A stretch of 32,000 nucleotides of DNA from Geotalea daltonii FRC-32 (GTDB taxonomy: Bacteria > Desulfobacterota > Desulfuromonadia > Geobacterales > Geobacteraceae), in the NCBI RefSeq assembly GCF_000022265.1, contig NC_011979.1:2430001-2462000 (forward strand), read 5' to 3'. Below, in pieces: positions 22,287 to 32,000 of this stretch. Every line of letters begins with the position of its first letter. Positions within the stretch are counted from its first letter, which is position 1. The notes under the pieces were generated by a model. The model had not been told where the DNA came from, searched no databases, and saw nothing but the letters and a program-made list of their open reading frames with translations. The position numbers and the translations under genes are program-made.

Positions 22287-22649
22287 ATGCTTGAAAATTT
22301 AACTATTATTCTTCTCTGTCAACTCATCGGCGAGGTCATAACAAGGATGGGCAAGCTGCCTGTACCGGGCCCAGTGCTCGGCATGGTGATTCTCTTCGGC
22401 GGGCTGATGATACGCAACAAAATGCCCCAGGAACTGGAATCGGTGGGAGGTTTTCTGCTGCGTTACCTGTCGCTGCTCTTCGTTCCGGCGGGGGTCGGAA
22501 TCATTACCAATCTGGACCTGCTGGTCAGATCCTGGGCTCCCATCGCAGGCGCCATAATCGTCGGGACCATGGTTACCATTGCCGTGACCGGTCTCGTCAT
22601 GCAGTACCTGAACCGCAGGCAGAACGTCCGCAGGGAGACCCGCCAATGA
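22287..22649 (+). CDS. lrgA: CidA/LrgA-family holin-like membrane protein
   Basis: The 120-aa product has four hydrophobic segments. The N-terminus LLCQLIGEVI....LPVPGPVLGMVILF is typical of LrgA. It is coupled to lrgB by an ATGA overlap. Confidence 0.8.
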   Translation: MLENLTIILLCQLIGEVITRMGKLPVPGPVLGMVILFGGLMIRNKMPQELESVGGFLLRYLSLLFVPAGVGIITNLDLLVRSWAPIAGAIIVGTMVTIAVTGLVMQYLNRRQNVRRETRQ

Positions 22650-23365
22650 ACGGGGATATGAGGGAATTATGGGTTTACCTGTCGACGACGCCGCTGCTCT
22701 GGCTGACTTTGACTCTCATCGCTTACCAGTTGGGAGGCTGGCTGTTTCGCCGTTTCGGCTCACCTCCTGTCCTCAATCCGGTACTGACTGCGGTCGTGCT
22801 TCTGGTCCTTTTGCTCAAGACCAGCGGGACCGATTACCAGACCTATTTCCGGGGCGCCCAGTTCATACATTTTCTTCTCGGACCAGCCACCGTTGCCCTG
22901 GCGATCCCCCTTTACCGGGAGGTTCATGCCGTAAAAAGCGCCTTTCTGCCCATTGCGCTGGCTTTGCTGATCGGCGCTCTTACTGGCATTTTCAGCGCCG
23001 TTGGCATCGGCTGGCTCCTGGGAGGGGAGAAGACCATTCTCCTGACGCTGGCTCCCAAATCGGTTACCACCCCCATTGCCATGGGTATTTCGGAAAAGAT
23101 CGGCGGCCTGCCTTCTCTGACAGCAGTGGTGGTGGTATTGACCGGTATTGCCGGGGCGGTGATCGGTGACGTTGTCCTCAATAAAATGAGGATCAAGGAC
23201 GAAATGGCCCGCGGTATGGCACTGGGCGTGGCTTCACACGGCATCGGCACGGCCCATGCCATTCAGAGGGGAAGGGTGGCGGGTGCTTTCTCTGCCTTGG
23301 CCATGGCCCTGAACGGACTGCTGACGGCCATCATTCTGCCGTTCATTGCCCCTTTTTTGCGTTGA
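22646..23365 (+). CDS. lrgB: LrgB-family membrane protein
   Basis: The 239-aa product is polytopic and carries LAPKSVTTPIAMGISEKIGG and GVASHGIGTA motifs typical of LrgB. Confidence 0.8.
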   Translation: MNGDMRELWVYLSTTPLLWLTLTLIAYQLGGWLFRRFGSPPVLNPVLTAVVLLVLLLKTSGTDYQTYFRGAQFIHFLLGPATVALAIPLYREVHAVKSAFLPIALALLIGALTGIFSAVGIGWLLGGEKTILLTLAPKSVTTPIAMGISEKIGGLPSLTAVVVVLTGIAGAVIGDVVLNKMRIKDEMARGMALGVASHGIGTAHAIQRGRVAGAFSALAMALNGLLTAIILPFIAPFLR

Positions 23366-26460: not shown

Positions 26461-27012
26461 ATGAACAAACATTTTGAAGACCTTCTTTTCAATACGAATT
26501 TGGACCTGAGCCTGAGTGTGATTAACAGGGACAATCTATCGCAGTTATCGGTAACTTCCCGGATTGGCGCACCGAGAGTATTCCTTGGCCTCCTCTTCGG
26601 CATTCCCTGTCTGGTTCTGCTCTTCTACGGGGTACGCCACCAGGGGATATATATCCTTCTTTCACTGGTCTTTTGCCCGCCCCTTGCAATTCTCAGTCTT
26701 CTGTTCGGTCTGACCAGACAGAAAAAGACCTTCATCCCCTCCCACGGCGTGGCGATCAAATCCTGCAGCCTGCTCCACATCCAGCGTGATATGCCCGTCC
26801 AGCTCCCAAAGAATGGCGTGTTGCAGGCCTATAAGCGATGGAGTTCCGGAGGCGAATCCGGGGGTGGTTGCTACTTCTATCATGTGGAGATTCAGGGATT
26901 GAAGGGCTTTGGCTTCTGCATCGCCAAAAATAAGAAAAAACGGGATGACTTTGCAACTGATCTTGCCAAATTTCTGGGCTATGAAGTTCGTGATCAGGAT
27001 GGGCAGTTATGA
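26461..27012 (+). CDS. Hypothetical two-TM membrane protein
   Basis: The 183-aa ORF is AT-richer than its surroundings and has two hydrophobic helices (VFLGLLFGIPCLVLLFYGV, IYILLSLVFCPPLAILSLLFGL). It has no clear SD and no recognisable domain. Confidence 0.4.
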   Translation: MNKHFEDLLFNTNLDLSLSVINRDNLSQLSVTSRIGAPRVFLGLLFGIPCLVLLFYGVRHQGIYILLSLVFCPPLAILSLLFGLTRQKKTFIPSHGVAIKSCSLLHIQRDMPVQLPKNGVLQAYKRWSSGGESGGGCYFYHVEIQGLKGFGFCIAKNKKKRDDFATDLAKFLGYEVRDQDGQL

Positions 27013-27058: not shown

Positions 27059-27460
27059 TCAAACTGTCCAATCAAGAAGGTTGATGGAGGGGACGCGCAA
27101 AAACTCGCGGGTGTTATTTGTAACCAGAGGGATTCCCAATGATACGGCGTGAGCGGCAATGAGCATATCCATGGAACCAATGGGGGAGCCGGCTTTTTCA
27201 AGAGTCGATCTGATATCTCCATAAACGTGGGCAGCCGCTTCATCATAAGCGACCACCTCCAGGGGGATGATGAACTCGTCGAGAGCTTTGGCGTTTTTTT
27301 CTCGGTGAGCGCTTTTTGCGACCCCGTAGCGCAGTTCGGAGAGGGTTATGGAGGAAATGCCAATGTCACCGATCTCGTACTCCAGAAAATGCTTCAACAC
27401 GGTGTCCGGCTGTTGCTTGATGATATAAATACAGATATTGGTGTCGAGCAGCAGTTTCAT
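27059..27460 (-). CDS. vapC: VapC PIN-domain toxin (MvpT/initiator-tRNA endonuclease-like)
   Basis: PIN acidic residues are in context: LLDTNICIY, SSITLSELRYG, GSMDMLIAAHA and LVTNNTREF. This closely resembles enteric VapC/MvpT. It overlaps the vapB stop by 1 nt. Confidence 0.9.
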   Translation of the reverse strand: MKLLLDTNICIYIIKQQPDTVLKHFLEYEIGDIGISSITLSELRYGVAKSAHREKNAKALDEFIIPLEVVAYDEAAAHVYGDIRSTLEKAGSPIGSMDMLIAAHAVSLGIPLVTNNTREFLRVPSINLLDWTV

Positions 27461-27687
27461 CAGAAATTTTCCCGCTTGTCCTGTTCAGGTTGTATGCGTT
27501 CAGACATGAAGTCGCTTGAGAATTTTTTGAGACTGCCGAATAAAGAATCCCACGAATCGCTCCGGGGGATCAATTGGACGATGTTGCCGCATTTCTTTAT
27601 GAATACCTCGCTGTCATCGAAGCGAAATTCCTTAGGGAGCCTGACTGCCTGGCTTTGTCCATTTTGAAATATTTTTGCTGTTTTCAT
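27460..27687 (-). CDS. vapB: VapB antitoxin (AbrB/SpoVT-type)
   Basis: The 75-aa product starts MKTAKIFQNGQSQAVRLPKEFRF, a swapped-hairpin AbrB motif. A GGAGG SD lies upstream. Confidence 0.85.
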   Translation of the reverse strand: MKTAKIFQNGQSQAVRLPKEFRFDDSEVFIKKCGNIVQLIPRSDSWDSLFGSLKKFSSDFMSERIQPEQDKRENF

Positions 27688-28188: not shown

Positions 28189-28389
28189 CGATACTACCTC
28201 CTGTGATTGTGTTGTTGTAAGAGTACGTGTTCTGTGGGGGAAGGCGATTGCAAAGGTAGTAATGGTACCCGATGGCGAGCGTCTGGTCAACGGCATACTC
28301 TTAAGTAGACCTCATCCTCAGGTTTCGTGAGACTTGTACCTGGAGTTTTTTGAGCAGCCCTACATTCTGTGACTTTTGTCAGCAATCTG

Positions 28390-28417
28390 AGCCCGCACCT
28401 GCTGCGGGCTTTTTTTT
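28390..28417 (+). terminator. Strong rho-independent terminator with no + strand gene upstream
   Basis: The 8-bp GC-rich stem AGCCCGCA-cctgc-TGCGGGCT runs into an 8-T tract (28410-17) that shares its first T with the stem. The nearest upstream gene is on the minus strand. Confidence 0.6.
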
Positions 28418-28427
28418 ATTCCTCCCC

Positions 28428-28482
28428 CGAAAGACATTTCGCTGAAAATTCTTCTTTGTACCCTTTTCCGAAATCCATTTCG
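28428..28482 (+). promoter_or_regulatory. Two related palindromes; candidate enhancer-binding-protein sites
   Basis: CGAAAgacaTTTCG (28428-28441) and CGAAAtccaTTTCG (28469-28482) are 41 bp apart centre to centre. They lie about 35-90 nt upstream of the -24 element. Confidence 0.4.
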
Positions 28483-28514: not shown

Positions 28515-28529
28515 TGGCACATCCCTTGC
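28515..28529 (+). promoter_or_regulatory. Sigma-54 (RpoN) -24/-12 promoter
   Basis: TGGCAC (28515-28520), 5 nt, then TTGC (28526-28529) is an exact match to the TGGCAC-N5-TTGC core. It lies about 50 nt upstream of ATG 28580. Confidence 0.6.
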
Positions 28530-28579
28530 CGTAGTTATGGTGTCGTCTTTTCAATCAAGCTTGCGCACAGGAGGTACCA

Positions 28580-29239
28580 ATGCACGATATTGACAGGACA
28601 TGGAACGAATTTGGTTCAGGCGAGACTGAGATGGGGGAAACAGGTTTCGAGTTCGACCAGGAGATCGGCCAGGAGATCGGCCAAAGTGGAGAAACGTCTA
28701 GTCCCTTTTCTGAACTGCAGGAAATGGAACTGGCCGCGGAACTTCTTTCGGTCAACAATGAGTCGGAGCTTAACAACTTTCTTGGCTCCCTGATCAGGAA
28801 AGCGGGCAGTGCGGCGGGAAGTTTCATTTCCTCGCCTACTGGTCAGGCTCTGGGGGGGATACTGAAACAGGCGGCAAAAAAGGCGTTGCCGGTTGTCGGC
28901 AGTGCCATTGGCGGGTACTTCGGCGGGTCCACCGGTGCAAACATAGGCGGCAAGCTGGCTTCTTCCGCTGGCAAAGCACTAGGCCTTGAATTGGAAGGGA
29001 TGAGCCAGGAAGACCGGGAATTTGAAGTTGCCCGCCATTTTGTCAGGTTTGGCGGAGCGACCGTCAAAAGAGTGTTGCAGACATCAGGGTTCAGCCCGCA
29101 GGCCGTTAACCGGGCTGCAGTGGCAGCGGCCCAGCAATATCTGCCCGGACTGGTCGGAGGTGCTACCGTCGGGCAGAGTTGCGGCAGAGGTGGCAGGTGG
29201 TACCGCCGCGGCAACAAGGTAATTCTCGTGGGCCTGTGA
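28580..29239 (+). CDS. Hypothetical protein, paralogue A: acidic N-terminal region + glycine-zipper region + basic C-terminal RRG motif
   Basis: AGGAGG (28569-28574) lies 5 nt before the ATG. The 219-aa product shares block-wise conserved motifs with the next ORF. I recognise no family. Confidence 0.7.
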   Translation: MHDIDRTWNEFGSGETEMGETGFEFDQEIGQEIGQSGETSSPFSELQEMELAAELLSVNNESELNNFLGSLIRKAGSAAGSFISSPTGQALGGILKQAAKKALPVVGSAIGGYFGGSTGANIGGKLASSAGKALGLELEGMSQEDREFEVARHFVRFGGATVKRVLQTSGFSPQAVNRAAVAAAQQYLPGLVGGATVGQSCGRGGRWYRRGNKVILVGL

Positions 29240-29284
29240 CAACCATTGAAGGACCTAAATCACTTTTGGAAAAAGGAGGCATCC

Positions 29285-29983
29285 ATGTGGGAACAGCAGG
29301 AATTCGGCACGGAAATGCAGGAGCAGGGTGAGAACTACGAGATGTTCGGCGAGATGCCTGAGATGAGCGGCGAATTTCAGGGAGAATCCCCCCTGAACGA
29401 GATGCAAGAAATGGAGCTGGCGGCAGAACTGCTCTCCATCAGCAATGAGCGGGAACTGGAGCAGTTTCTGGGCAGCCTGGTGAAGAAGGCAGCGGGTTTT
29501 ATTAAAAGTCCGATCGGCAAGGCTCTGGGTGGTGTTCTCAAGGGTATTGCCAAAAAAGCACTCCCCATTGTTGGCGGGGCCATTGGCAGTTTTGTCGCTC
29601 CGGGTGTAGGGACGGCAATCGGATCTTCCCTGGGGTCGGCAGCAGGCAAGATGTTCGGCCTGGAACTGGAAGGAATGAGCAATGAAGACAAGGAATTCGA
29701 GGTAGCGCGCCGATATGTGCGCCTGGCCACGGCAGCGGCGCGACGGGCGGCATATGCTCCGTCACGCATGCCGCCCCATATGGCTGCGCGACAGGCGGTG
29801 ATGATTGCAGCGCGCAGATATGCACCAGGTCTCATTAGCTTCCAGCAGCAAAACGGAAATGCTGAACCGTGGAGCAGCGGAGGGGATATGGGAACCGACG
29901 GTTTTCAACAGCAGGATATGGGGGAAAGGAACAGCGGACGCTGGGTTCGTCGCGGGCGGAATATCATAATACTTGGAGCATGA
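29285..29983 (+). CDS. Hypothetical protein, paralogue B of the preceding gene
   Basis: AGGAGG (29274-29279) lies 5 nt before ATG 29285; the ORF-track TTG at 29246 is unlikely. Blocks shared with paralogue A are QEMELAAELLS, FLGSL, ALGG.LK..AKKALP.VG.AIG, GLELEGMS.ED.EFEVAR and GRW.RRG..(V/I)IL.G at the C-terminus. Confidence 0.7.
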   Translation: MWEQQEFGTEMQEQGENYEMFGEMPEMSGEFQGESPLNEMQEMELAAELLSISNERELEQFLGSLVKKAAGFIKSPIGKALGGVLKGIAKKALPIVGGAIGSFVAPGVGTAIGSSLGSAAGKMFGLELEGMSNEDKEFEVARRYVRLATAAARRAAYAPSRMPPHMAARQAVMIAARRYAPGLISFQQQNGNAEPWSSGGDMGTDGFQQQDMGERNSGRWVRRGRNIIILGA

Positions 29984-31296
29984 ACCCGGCCATGGATAAT
30001 GCGGCGCTGCAAATACTCAAAGGTGAGGCGCAAAGCCTGATCACCCGCATTGATAGAATGGAGCCATTCGCGCTGCGCATGCCGATGGTTCTTGCCGCTG
30101 CGGTTCCCCTTCCGGCACAGGTTGCCATAGAGCGTCACCTGTCCGGAAAAAGGCTCAAAATGCGCGCCATGATGACGGGGTATCTCAAGTGGTTGGAGAG
30201 CCCGGAAGGACGCGCGGCATCTCCTTCTCTGGCCCAACGGCGTTTCTCGTTTTTGCGATTAAGGTTCATTGCCATTCTCGCCCAGCTGGACATCTTTGCC
30301 ATTGTCTTCAACCAGCGCAGCGAGCACGACACCGGGATCTGGCTTTCAGGGCTCGATGTGTTCGCCGCTGATGCCCTTACTCTTCCGGGAAAGTACTACC
30401 AAGCTCCACCTGTCATCTGTTTTCTCGAGAGAAGTCCTGGAGCGGCTATTCGACGGGCGAGGACGAGGCTTCCCGGCGGCGATGACAACCCGGTTGCTGT
30501 CATCCAGATTCCCCGGGAGCGGATGATCGGCGGTGGGATTGCATCATCGCTGGTGCATGAAGTGGGGCATCAGGGGGCGGCACTGCTGGATCTGGTGACT
30601 TCCTTGCGCATTGAACTGCAAAAGAGGAAGCGTAACGCCGGAAATGACCAGATTGCCTGGCGCTGTTGGGACCGGTGGACTTCGGAGATTGTGGCTGATC
30701 TGTGGGCAGTGGCCAGACTGGGAGTCTCTGCCACCGTTGGCCTGATGACGGTGGTGGGGTTGCCGAAACCATTCATGTTTCGTGTCGATTTCGAAGATCC
30801 CCATCCGGCACCTTGGATCAGGGTTATGCTTTCCTGTGCCATGGGGCAGGAACTGTACCCTCATTCCCAGTGGCAGGCACTGGCGAAAAACTGGGAGGCA
30901 TTCTATCCCTGTGAGGGATTGGAGGCCGGAAGACTGCGGCTGTTTGCCCTTTTGCAAAAGACGATGCCGGAATTTGTCAAGTGGCTGGTGCACTACCGCC
31001 CGAAGGCCTTGCGCGGGAAGACCCTGCAAGATGCACTCTCGAACACTGATCTGCAACCGGCGCGCCTCGGGGCTATATATAAATCGTGGAAAGAAATGCC
31101 GCAGCTGATAAAGACCGCTTCTCCCACCCTTGTATTTGCCGTCATCGGCCAGGCGAAAATGAATGGACTGATAACCGCTGAAGAGGAAAGCCGGGTTTTG
31201 GCTGATATGCTCAGGTACTGGGCGCTGAAAATAACCCTGGACACAACGGCAGTATGTGCAGGAATGTCGCGTGCCCATCAACCGTTGACTGTCTGA
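29980..31296 (+). CDS. HExxH zinc-metallopeptidase-like protein (gluzincin-type HEVGH ... SEIVAD)
   Basis: ATG 29980 overlaps the upstream TGA (ATGA), and GGAG lies at 29974-29977. The product carries SSLVHEVGHQG and, about 40 aa downstream, WTSEIVADLWA, which resembles the ExxAD third-ligand helix of M48/M78-type peptidases. Confidence 0.65.
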   Translation: MNPAMDNAALQILKGEAQSLITRIDRMEPFALRMPMVLAAAVPLPAQVAIERHLSGKRLKMRAMMTGYLKWLESPEGRAASPSLAQRRFSFLRLRFIAILAQLDIFAIVFNQRSEHDTGIWLSGLDVFAADALTLPGKYYQAPPVICFLERSPGAAIRRARTRLPGGDDNPVAVIQIPRERMIGGGIASSLVHEVGHQGAALLDLVTSLRIELQKRKRNAGNDQIAWRCWDRWTSEIVADLWAVARLGVSATVGLMTVVGLPKPFMFRVDFEDPHPAPWIRVMLSCAMGQELYPHSQWQALAKNWEAFYPCEGLEAGRLRLFALLQKTMPEFVKWLVHYRPKALRGKTLQDALSNTDLQPARLGAIYKSWKEMPQLIKTASPTLVFAVIGQAKMNGLITAEEESRVLADMLRYWALKITLDTTAVCAGMSRAHQPLTV

Positions 31297-31361: not shown

Positions 31362-32000
31362 ATGAAAAAAGACGAGATCAATGCCGACGTAAAGATAACG
31401 CCGAAAAAGCCTGATCCAAAGAAGGGTGATCGGATTCTTGAAGAGGGGATAAAAATCACCGGTGATGCTGCTGATCTGCTTCGTAAAGCACTGGCAGAGC
31501 CAAAGGAAGTTACGCTGACCCGTCCGGAAGCATTACCCACCGATGACCAGGCACTCTGGGTAGCCATCCGCAACAGGACGACGGCCGTCAATTTCGAGCG
31601 GTATCGAAATTTCATAGGCAGGGTCTTCTGTGACGACGGGGGAAATGAACAGAAACGGTATTTCAGAGGGAAGAGCGATCAGCTTAAGGATGTGAGAAAC
31701 TTCGATGCACGCCTCAGCATTAATTCCATCGATTCCTATAACGTATTGCGGTTTGCCACCGAAATCTTCCTCATAATGGAATGCGGCGTGGTTATTGACA
31801 AGACCGGGGACCCGCTCTTTGGTGAAGATGAGGAAAACATCCGTTCCATCAATTTCGAGGAGGCAGACAGTTTCGAGGAAATCAAGGAAAGGCTGCAAAA
31901 TTATCTGGGCAATACCACCTATCTTCCTTACCTGGACCGGATTCTCAATGCCCTGATCGAGGACTGGAAACTGGAGGAGAAAACGAATCCTTACTGCGGC
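31362..32000 (+). CDS. Hypothetical protein, N-terminal 213 aa only (continues beyond the window)
   Basis: AGGAGG (31351-31356) lies 5 nt before ATG 31362. My own translation (MKKDEINADVKITPKKPDPKKGD...ALWVAIRNRTTAVNFERYRNF...YLPYLDRILNAL...NPYCG) is open to the window end. The ORF is missing from the ORF track, probably because it has no stop codon. I recognise no domain. Confidence 0.6.
   Translation, partial: MKKDEINADVKITPKKPDPKKGDRILEEGIKITGDAADLLRKALAEPKEVTLTRPEALPTDDQALWVAIRNRTTAVNFERYRNFIGRVFCDDGGNEQKRYFRGKSDQLKDVRNFDARLSINSIDSYNVLRFATEIFLIMECGVVIDKTGDPLFGEDEENIRSINFEEADSFEEIKERLQNYLGNTTYLPYLDRILNALIEDWKLEEKTNPYCG

Follow-up and report, generated by a model that had tools for sequence, protein, structure and literature searches.

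The neighbouring genes A and B of Geotalea (Geobacter) daltonii FRC-32 are two copies of a previously undescribed protein module, here called AB, which the horizontally spread operon AB-C-D encodes first, next to its promoter. The genes were studied in a 32,000-nucleotide (nt) stretch of the genome, referred to below as the window, which holds three complete operon genes on the + strand: A (Geob_2221, 28580..29239, 219 amino acids [aa]), B (Geob_2222, 29285..29983, 232 aa) and C (Geob_2223, 29980..31296, 438 aa). The fourth gene, D (Geob_2224, 511 aa in full), is represented by its 5' part (31362..32000, + strand) and extends past the window end. A, B and C are all annotated as "hypothetical protein," and a literature search returned no description of these genes or of a sigma-54 cluster with this composition. 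The system as a whole resembles no described kind, though the glycine zipper at the heart of AB is a known motif; its function is wholly inferred.

The interpretation that we prefer, and hold tentatively, is that AB-C-D acts as a module under tight control whose role is to breach the membrane or lyse the cell. The sections that follow set out the module, its operon, its promoter, and the variable genes that accompany it, and bring in other interpretations where the evidence touches them.

Two copies of one module

The A and B proteins are 44% identical across their whole length (BLASTP, E 2e-53), a similarity far above chance that bears out the tandem paralogy proposed in a first-pass annotation of the same DNA, and the four conserved blocks quoted there are all present exactly as given. 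The true start of B is the ATG at 29285, which has a Shine–Dalgarno sequence, AAGGAGG, 6 nt before it and yields a product that matches the deposited Geob_2222 protein; the TTG at 29246 is not the start.

In A, the motif MHDIDRT and an acidic, disordered N-terminus (nt 28580-28720) are followed by the EMELAAELL..FLGS helices (nt 28721-28789), a glycine-zipper hairpin (nt 28883-28984), the LELEG..VRF helix (nt 28985-29050), and the tail GRWYRRGNKVILVGL (nt 29192-29236). The corresponding parts of B are an acidic N-terminus (nt 29285-29407), EMELAAELL..FLGS (nt 29408-29476), the hairpin (nt 29558-29659), the LELEG block (nt 29660-29725), which is followed by a variable linker, and the tail GRWVRRGRNIIILGA (nt 29936-29980). 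Two details of the first-pass description need correction. The zipper does not directly follow FLGS, since it begins about 30 residues beyond FLG, and the acidic part is not half of the protein but some 20% of it: the N-terminal 41-47 residues contain 11-12 aspartate and glutamate residues against 0-1 lysine and arginine.

Hydropathy was assessed with a 19-residue Kyte–Doolittle window and a threshold of 1.6. All windows of A and B fall below that value (maximum means of 1.0 and 1.5, respectively), with no hydrophobic N-terminal signal in either protein, in keeping with the earlier statement that a Sec signal is absent. No component of the operon has a signal peptide or a transmembrane helix.

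At roughly half of the loci, a single AB copy bears the N-terminal motif MHD[IL]DRT; this motif was counted in the first-listed AB open reading frame (ORF) of 43/84 loci and in 12/45 later ORFs, with some fused proteins counted twice.

Spread and conservation of the AB family

A word-indexed search returned 2,419 relatives of AB, and an exhaustive profile search defined a family of 2,448 clusters at 50% identity, 1,982 of them with E <= 1e-10. When one genome per species was scanned, at least 377 AB loci were found, in Desulfobacterota, Nitrospirota, Bacteroidota, Acidobacteriota, Gemmatimonadota, Actinomycetota, Chloroflexota, Rhodothermota, Myxococcota, and the alpha-, beta-, and gamma-proteobacteria; the family spans at least ten phyla.

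Conservation was ranked by per-column information in an alignment of 83 homologues. The highest values fall in residues 81-130 (LGGxLKxxAKKALPxVGGAxGSxxAPGxGTAxGSxLGSxAG..FGLELEG), which contain the zipper and in which G97, G101, G109, and G113 are invariant. A second tier comprises EMELAxELL (41-50), E.ELxxFLG (55-63), and GRWxRRG in the tail (218-224), whereas the linker preceding the tail and, above all, the acidic N-terminus are variable. The first-pass annotation had described the N-terminal 45 or so residues as poorly conserved, which is what the alignment shows, and had suggested that FLGS and the C-terminal tail might prove to be the most conserved positions. This second idea holds in part: FLG and GRWxRRG do stand out, beside the zipper and EMELAxELL, but the serine of FLGS is not conserved. 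The blocks are retained family-wide and are not the lineage noise that had been considered as an alternative.

Many members of the family are fusions of two, three, or four modules, with the tail on the last module only. Looser forms of the tail (GTWxRRG.., GQWRRSRNGRAIILYL, and GNWYRDGNRIVIEGA) occur in lineages outside the strict pattern, and because these variants are found where that pattern missed, we regard the tail as near-universal. In seven loci from Burkholderiaceae and relatives (L039, L047, L048, L051, L052, L074, and L081), the AB tail has the variant form G.WRRSR.GR.II.YL and is preceded by CP.CG, a motif that other lineages lack and that is possibly one half of a zinc ribbon.

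No Pfam or NCBIfam model matches A or B above its cut-off. The best Pfam match of B is Gly-zipper_Omp, at 17.6 bits against a cut-off of 25 (E 0.0038), and A has no match. The label "DUF697 family," which many homologues bear in IMG, was not confirmed by Pfam for A or B, and weak matches to TRI4_N and Ntox25 were regarded as chance. Sequence and profile searches found no relative of AB in the PDB, and a PADLOC scan of A-D and the accessory proteins gave nothing above threshold for A-D. Neither B nor C had a match when 50,697 phage genomes were searched by tblastn, which leaves a prophage or phage-lysis origin unsupported.

Predicted structure and the double-glycine question

An AlphaFold2 model of B, built from 83 sequences, has a mean predicted local distance difference test score (pLDDT) of 74.8 and a predicted template modelling score (pTM) of 0.65. 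Residues 1-37 are disordered in the model; confident helices span residues 39-50, 55-70, and 76-92; the glycine-rich segment 97-111 has low confidence; and further helices (112-124, 133-156, and 164-189) lead through a disordered linker to a two-stranded hairpin at 219-230 (pLDDT about 87). The AB module is thus predicted to consist of an acidic disordered N-terminus, a helical bundle with a zipper hairpin of about 30 residues, a variable linker, and a basic beta-hairpin of the form GxWxRxGxxIxL. Foldseek found no match with E < 0.1 for the B model in the PDB or among the BFVD viral models, or for the C model in the PDB; the best PDB hits of B (E 0.15, TM-score 0.2) were unrelated proteins, and nothing similar was seen in BFVD.

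The glycine zipper that had been noted in the first-pass annotation is present and forms the conserved core of the family. In B, it reads G109xxxG113xxxG117xxxG121xxxG125 within a 34-residue stretch that has a single charged residue, which gives B the three or more consecutive GxxxG repeats in a near-uncharged segment that are expected of glycine-zipper membrane proteins and toxins. A Pro-Gly pair interrupts the stretch, which resembles a helical hairpin whose length would not suffice for two classical membrane spans.

The first-pass annotation had noted that the E-L-x-x-F-L-G-S segment has the spacing of a double-glycine leader cleavage site. On a literal reading, A and B would resemble bacteriocin precursors, with an acidic leader cut at FLG-S to free a secreted glycine-zipper peptide. 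The spacing in A and B, with E(-8), L(-7), F(-4), G(-2), and S(-1), does resemble the leader consensus, and glycine-zipper bacteriocins exist in CdzC/D (cited in PMC10240207). The -1 residue is not conserved, however. The residue following the invariant FLG is G in 46, K in 16, S in 9, N in 7, and D in 5 of the 83 homologues, so that K, N, or D, which misfit a GG/GA/GS site, occupy the position in 28/83 (34%). The predicted site is also buried: FLGS (61-64) falls in the middle of helix 55-70, which the B model places with a pLDDT of about 90 or more. An ABC/C39 exporter is not a conserved neighbour, as an ABC ATPase ORF (with Walker A and LSGGQ motifs) lies within 10 kb in only 3/84 loci. The supposed leader would be 64-70 residues long and its product about 150-170, and FLG is kept in the internal modules of fused AB proteins. 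We regard the double-glycine model as largely refuted already and give it hardly any credence. A ribosomally synthesised and post-translationally modified peptide precursor was ruled out as well, the products being folded, at least 150-170 residues long, and highly conserved along their length.

At three loci only, the AB genes are immediately preceded by an ABC-ATPase-like ORF of about 560 aa (L025:3112-4809, L030:7031-8728, and L071:7786-9459).

The AB-C-D operon

The start of C overlaps the stop of B (ATGA, 29980-29983), and D has its own Shine–Dalgarno sequence upstream of its start at 31362. Synteny was counted in 84 related loci, and in nearly all of them AB (as one to three genes or a fusion) is followed by C and then by D. 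AB is present in 84/84 loci, C in 80/84, and D, after C, in 75/84; a divergent AAA+ enhancer-binding protein (EBP) is encoded in 53/84. The other recurrent neighbours are an Amidohydro_2 protein (51/84), a pyridoxal phosphate enzyme distantly related to the alpha-oxoamine synthases BioF, Kbl, and CqsA (44/84), and an M20 dipeptidase-like protein (14/84). Loci that lack one or more of these genes are mostly short contigs.

C and D are large orphan families with at least 5,200 matches each, and neither has a relative in Pfam, NCBIfam, or the PDB by sequence and profile searches. C is 55-60% identical between phyla. Across 89 sequences, H193, E194, H197, E236, and D240 are invariant, forming the motifs H193ExxH197 and E236xxxD240. 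HExxH together with ExxxD is the signature of gluzincins, in which ExxxD marks the third zinc ligand. In the C model (pLDDT 91), a small beta-sheet precedes the HExxH helix and ExxxD lies on a later helix; Foldseek found no similar solved structure in the PDB. C is a candidate zinc metallopeptidase, and its motifs suggest protease activity. The first-pass annotation had pointed to a peptidase neighbour, and this HExxH and ExxxD protein does lie directly downstream of B, to which it is translationally coupled.

Outside the canonical cluster, plasmids of Paraburkholderia sp. PGU19 (H5) and Bradyrhizobium quebecense (H6) carry more remote relatives of C, 26-30% identical to it over the HExxH region, which suggests a wider superfamily. 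In some lineages, the variable N-terminal part of D contains Ig-like domains (PKD, CarboxypepD_reg, Y_Y_Y, and E-set), as in L002:12085-14205, P0385, and P0389; D nevertheless has no signal peptide.

A candidate sigma-54 promoter

A -24/-12 element, TGGCACATCCCTTGCC (28515..28530, + strand), lies 50 nt before the ATG of A. It has the -24 GG and -12 GC at canonical spacing and agrees with the sigma-54 consensus at 10/11 specified positions. By the same score, 44 of 85 homologous loci have an element with at least 10/11 matches upstream of their first AB gene, and 24 more have one with 9/11.

Further upstream on the + strand are two palindromes, candidate upstream activating sequences (UAS) at which the EBP might bind: the distal UAS1, CGAAAGACATTTCG (28428..28441), and the proximal UAS2, CGAAATCCATTTCG (28469..28482), 41 bp from it. 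UAS1 is identical in Geotalea sp. SG265 except for the spacer. Of 59 homologous promoter regions, 54 contain the underlying pattern, CGAA-N6-TTCG, for which the background rate is 0.03 sites per 200 nt. It is found twice or more in 37/59 loci, about 41 bp apart, and the starts of the paired sites typically lie some 86 and 45 nt 5' of the -24 element. The same layout of promoter and palindromes recurs in Proteobacteria, Bacteroidota, Acidobacteriota, Actinomycetota, and Chloroflexota, and this conservation across phyla marks CGAA-N6-TTCG as very likely the putative binding site of the cluster's own EBP. The EBPs match Sigma54_activat, and GAFTGA is present in 3/3 of the EBP sequences inspected; the EBP gene of G. 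daltonii is not within the window and would fall beyond its 3' end. These conserved features point to transcription of AB-C-D from a sigma-54 promoter.

A terminator-like hairpin (28389..28419, + strand) with a 9-pair stem, 6 of the pairs GC, followed by T8 lies upstream of the palindromes, in the intergenic region. No + strand gene precedes it, and Geotalea sp. SG265 has kept the same hairpin; it might shield the operon from transcripts that read through from upstream.

A sigma-54 (rpoN-like) gene is located inside or next to the cluster in 16 loci. Fifteen of these belong to Actinomycetota or Chloroflexota and the sixteenth is a metagenome contig (the loci include L004, L017, L032, L034, L035, L041, L042, L045, L049, L054, L055, L063, L067, L077, and L078). 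Actinobacteria have been reported to be without sigma-54, which only some Chloroflexi possess (Francke et al., PMC3162934). The operon appears to travel with its own sigma factor. A mention of sigma-54 in an eLife paper on conflict systems proved irrelevant to the cluster.

This regulatory arrangement invites comparison with a protective envelope-stress response such as the phage-shock (psp) operon, in which an abundant peripheral AB would stabilise or repair the cytoplasmic membrane and might feed back on the EBP, while the enzymes remodel envelope components. The psp logic is shared, with a sigma-54 promoter, a dedicated EBP, and a helical, probably membrane-associating first product. High conservation would suit a housekeeping-type stress function, and the oxoamine-synthase-like and amidohydrolase genes could produce an envelope lipid or amine. 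AB has no similarity to PspA/IM30 by Pfam or fold, however; signal-less amidases, endopeptidases, and a nuclease-like domain suit repair poorly; and a core stress response would not usually be spread sporadically by horizontal transfer along with a sigma factor from elsewhere. On balance, we find a protective role distinctly unlikely.

Accessory genes and shared tags

Variable accessory genes occupy the interval from D to the activator gene. Domains above the Pfam cut-offs among their products are PG_binding_1, OmpA-like, VanY, Peptidase_M74, Amidase_2, and trypsin-like; SLT-like and GIY-YIG-like proteins are present below them. None of the accessory proteins has a signal peptide.

Outside AB modules, the GxWxRxGxxIxL hairpin was found in about five accessory proteins. 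It is N-terminal in an Amidase_2/PG_binding/OmpA protein and a neighbouring 612-aa protein (L011:15490-19628), in an SLT-like protein (L050:16898-17914), and in a PG_binding/M15-like protein (L054:2106-2792, - strand), and it is internal in a PG_binding protein (L027:6335-7978). Complete AB modules are also fused behind other domains: behind PG_binding_1 and a GIY-YIG-like domain in Nitrosomonas (L033:15229-17172 and L059:15832-17337) and behind a GIY-YIG-like domain in Duganella (L076:15466-16548). Each of these fused modules is the third AB module of its locus and is preceded by an acidic segment. The acidic motif E[ML]E[LF] occurs in 7/34 accessory ORFs and 4/477 flanking ORFs (Fisher p = 8e-7), small counts obtained with naive ORF calling. 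Even so, they indicate that A and B have a portable motif at either end, shared within the system. The first-pass suggestion that the tail serves as a docking or targeting tag is strengthened as regards portability, the tail being confined to the last module of fusions and recurring in co-encoded peptidoglycan hydrolases.

One way to account for such ends is a cytoplasmic scaffold, in which AB modules polymerise head to tail, acidic N-terminus to basic tail, and build with D a particle or matrix that recruits tagged enzymes. The repeated tandem duplication, the fusions of two to four modules with a single terminal tag, the opposite charges at the two ends of AB, and the presence of the tag on accessory proteins would all fit. 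We nonetheless consider a scaffold quite improbable: no similarity to encapsulin, microcompartment, or phage shell proteins was found, there are no phage homologues, and a scaffold leaves the most conserved part of AB, the uncharged zipper, unexplained.

Another possibility is delivery of toxins or cargo to other cells. AB and the accessory proteins, among them cell-wall hydrolases, a trypsin-like protease, and a GIY-YIG-like nuclease, would then be polymorphic effectors with shared trafficking tags. C and D would assemble with these effectors or process them, their release would kill neighbouring cells, and the zipper would move effector domains through the target membrane, as in Tde1. A variable, effector-like accessory set with shared tags is what one would expect of such a system, and the fusions of PG_binding and GIY-YIG-like domains to AB modules, the Tde1 precedent, the patchy phylum distribution, and the presence of the cluster on megaplasmids all point the same way, as do the Ig-like N-terminal domains of some D proteins, which are typical of extracellular proteins. 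Against this, secretion machinery, immunity-like small membrane proteins, and known trafficking domains were not found, there is no match to PADLOC or a toxin family, and AB, C, and D are much more conserved than typical effectors. Release would, moreover, still require lysis, so that delivery overlaps with the gated-lysis interpretation. We judge delivery to other cells unlikely.

How the module may act

Under our preferred interpretation, a gated module that breaches the membrane or lyses the cell, the operon would be silent until the EBP is activated, and activation would lead to a cytoplasmic burst of AB protein. The zipper hairpins would oligomerise, enter the cytoplasmic membrane from the inside, and permeabilise it, allowing the co-encoded signal-less cell-wall enzymes to reach the peptidoglycan. 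Those given access might include the amidase, the VanY and M74 peptidases, the SLT-like protein, and the PG-binding/OmpA-like proteins, and the outcome would be controlled lysis or release of the cluster's products. The C-terminal hairpin could act as a docking tag which, with the acidic motif, draws proteins to a common partner, C or D, and the HExxH protein C is a candidate maturation protease for the tagged proteins.

The zipper is central to this interpretation, and it is the most conserved block of the family. It is also the sole low-confidence stretch in an otherwise confident helical core, as expected if the predicted segment folds only with oligomers or lipid. In Tde1 and TelE, the zipper glycines are needed for membrane permeabilisation (PMC10240207; PMC10434224); with these as precedents, AB may likewise be membrane-active through its glycine zipper.

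Several points weigh against a lytic role. The membrane activity of AB is inferred from a sequence motif alone, the Pfam glycine-zipper match is sub-threshold (17.6 against 25 bits), the hairpin helices fall short of classical transmembrane spans, and hydropathy stays below the usual threshold. Cell-wall enzymes are encoded in a minority of loci only, and the commonest accessory genes look metabolic (oxoamine-synthase-like, 44/84; Amidohydro_2, 51/84) and are not explained by lysis. The 55-60% identity of C across phyla is unusually high for a lysis or conflict module, the C model resembles no known protease structure, and D is unexplained. None of the models offered here in fact accounts for these two metabolic-looking genes, for the extreme degree to which C is conserved, or for what D does, and the probability left over after all of them goes to something not yet imagined.

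Framed more broadly, AB-C-D might be a new mobile cassette, gated by sigma-54 and its EBP, in which the zipper and tags carry signal-less hydrolases or effectors across or through the cytoplasmic membrane. We think this possible but doubtful. If true, proteins would be released, or cells lysed in a programmed way, by a route that has no relation to Sec, Tat, holins, or the numbered secretion systems, and the cassette would bring its own sigma factor into phyla without one.

The cluster merits attention on other grounds too. AB, C, and D each have thousands of members in at least ten phyla and belong to no curated family, yet they form one strictly syntenic operon, which offers a defined regulon for an orphan EBP. 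The import of sigma-54 with its target operon would, if confirmed, qualify the view of Actinomycetota as sigma-54-free. A new means of breaching a cell's own envelope or those of others may emerge, and the short tags could serve as protein-targeting tools.

Genomic surroundings

Just upstream of the operon, at 27059-27687 on the - strand, is a toxin-antitoxin pair of VapC (PIN) and VapB/MazE-like type; the equivalent position in Geotalea sp. SG265 holds a RelE/HTH pair and transposase genes. A 183-aa ORF at 26461-27012 (+) has hydrophobic segments and no Pfam family. A 120-aa ORF (22287-22649), possibly LrgA, is followed by a gene of the LrgB family (22646-23365, +); together they would form a holin/antiholin-like pair some 5 kb away from the operon, with no sign of linkage to it.

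Comparison with known systems

C resembles gluzincins of the thermolysin and neprilysin type in having an invariant HExxH helix after a small beta-sheet and ExxxD on a later helix, but unlike them it has no Pfam, NCBIfam, PDB sequence, or Foldseek match. With class II bacteriocins and NHLP/Nif11 leaders, A and B share the spacing E-L-x-x-hydrophobic-x-G-[GS]; they differ in that conservation does not extend to the -1 residue, the site falls within a predicted folded helix, no exporter accompanies it, and the supposed leader is long.

Holin-endolysin cassettes and type 10 secretion likewise place signal-less hydrolases beside a small glycine-rich, possibly membrane-active protein under tight transcriptional control. 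AB, however, has no true transmembrane helix, is 220-250 aa long where holins have fewer than about 150 aa, and matches no holin family; the cluster has no phage homologues, no spanin was recognised among its recurrent neighbours, and hydrolases are present in some loci only.

The psp operon of PspF and PspA has, like the AB operon, a dedicated EBP, a sigma-54 promoter, and a helical, probably membrane-associating first product. AB is not a PspA/IM30 homologue, and its operon has an HExxH protein, a large D protein, and cell-wall hydrolases. The cluster EBP differs from PspF in its N-terminal receiver-like domain, as read by eye from the sequence, and in its putative site, CGAA-N6-TTCG.

The closest parallels to the zipper itself are the N-terminus of Tde1 (type VI secretion system, T6SS), TelE (type VII, T7SS), Tse4, and CdzC/CdzD, which, like AB, have consecutive GxxxG repeats in an uncharged segment of a soluble, signal-less protein (PMC10240207; PMC10434224). 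Tde1 also has its zipper fused to an enzymatic domain, as is the case in some relatives of AB. There is no relation in sequence or fold between AB and these effectors, and T6SS, T7SS, and T1SS (type I) genes were not found nearby. What distinguishes AB is that its zipper is set in a conserved, predicted helical bundle of 150 residues, with acidic and basic tags at its ends, and is encoded in a putative sigma-54 operon.

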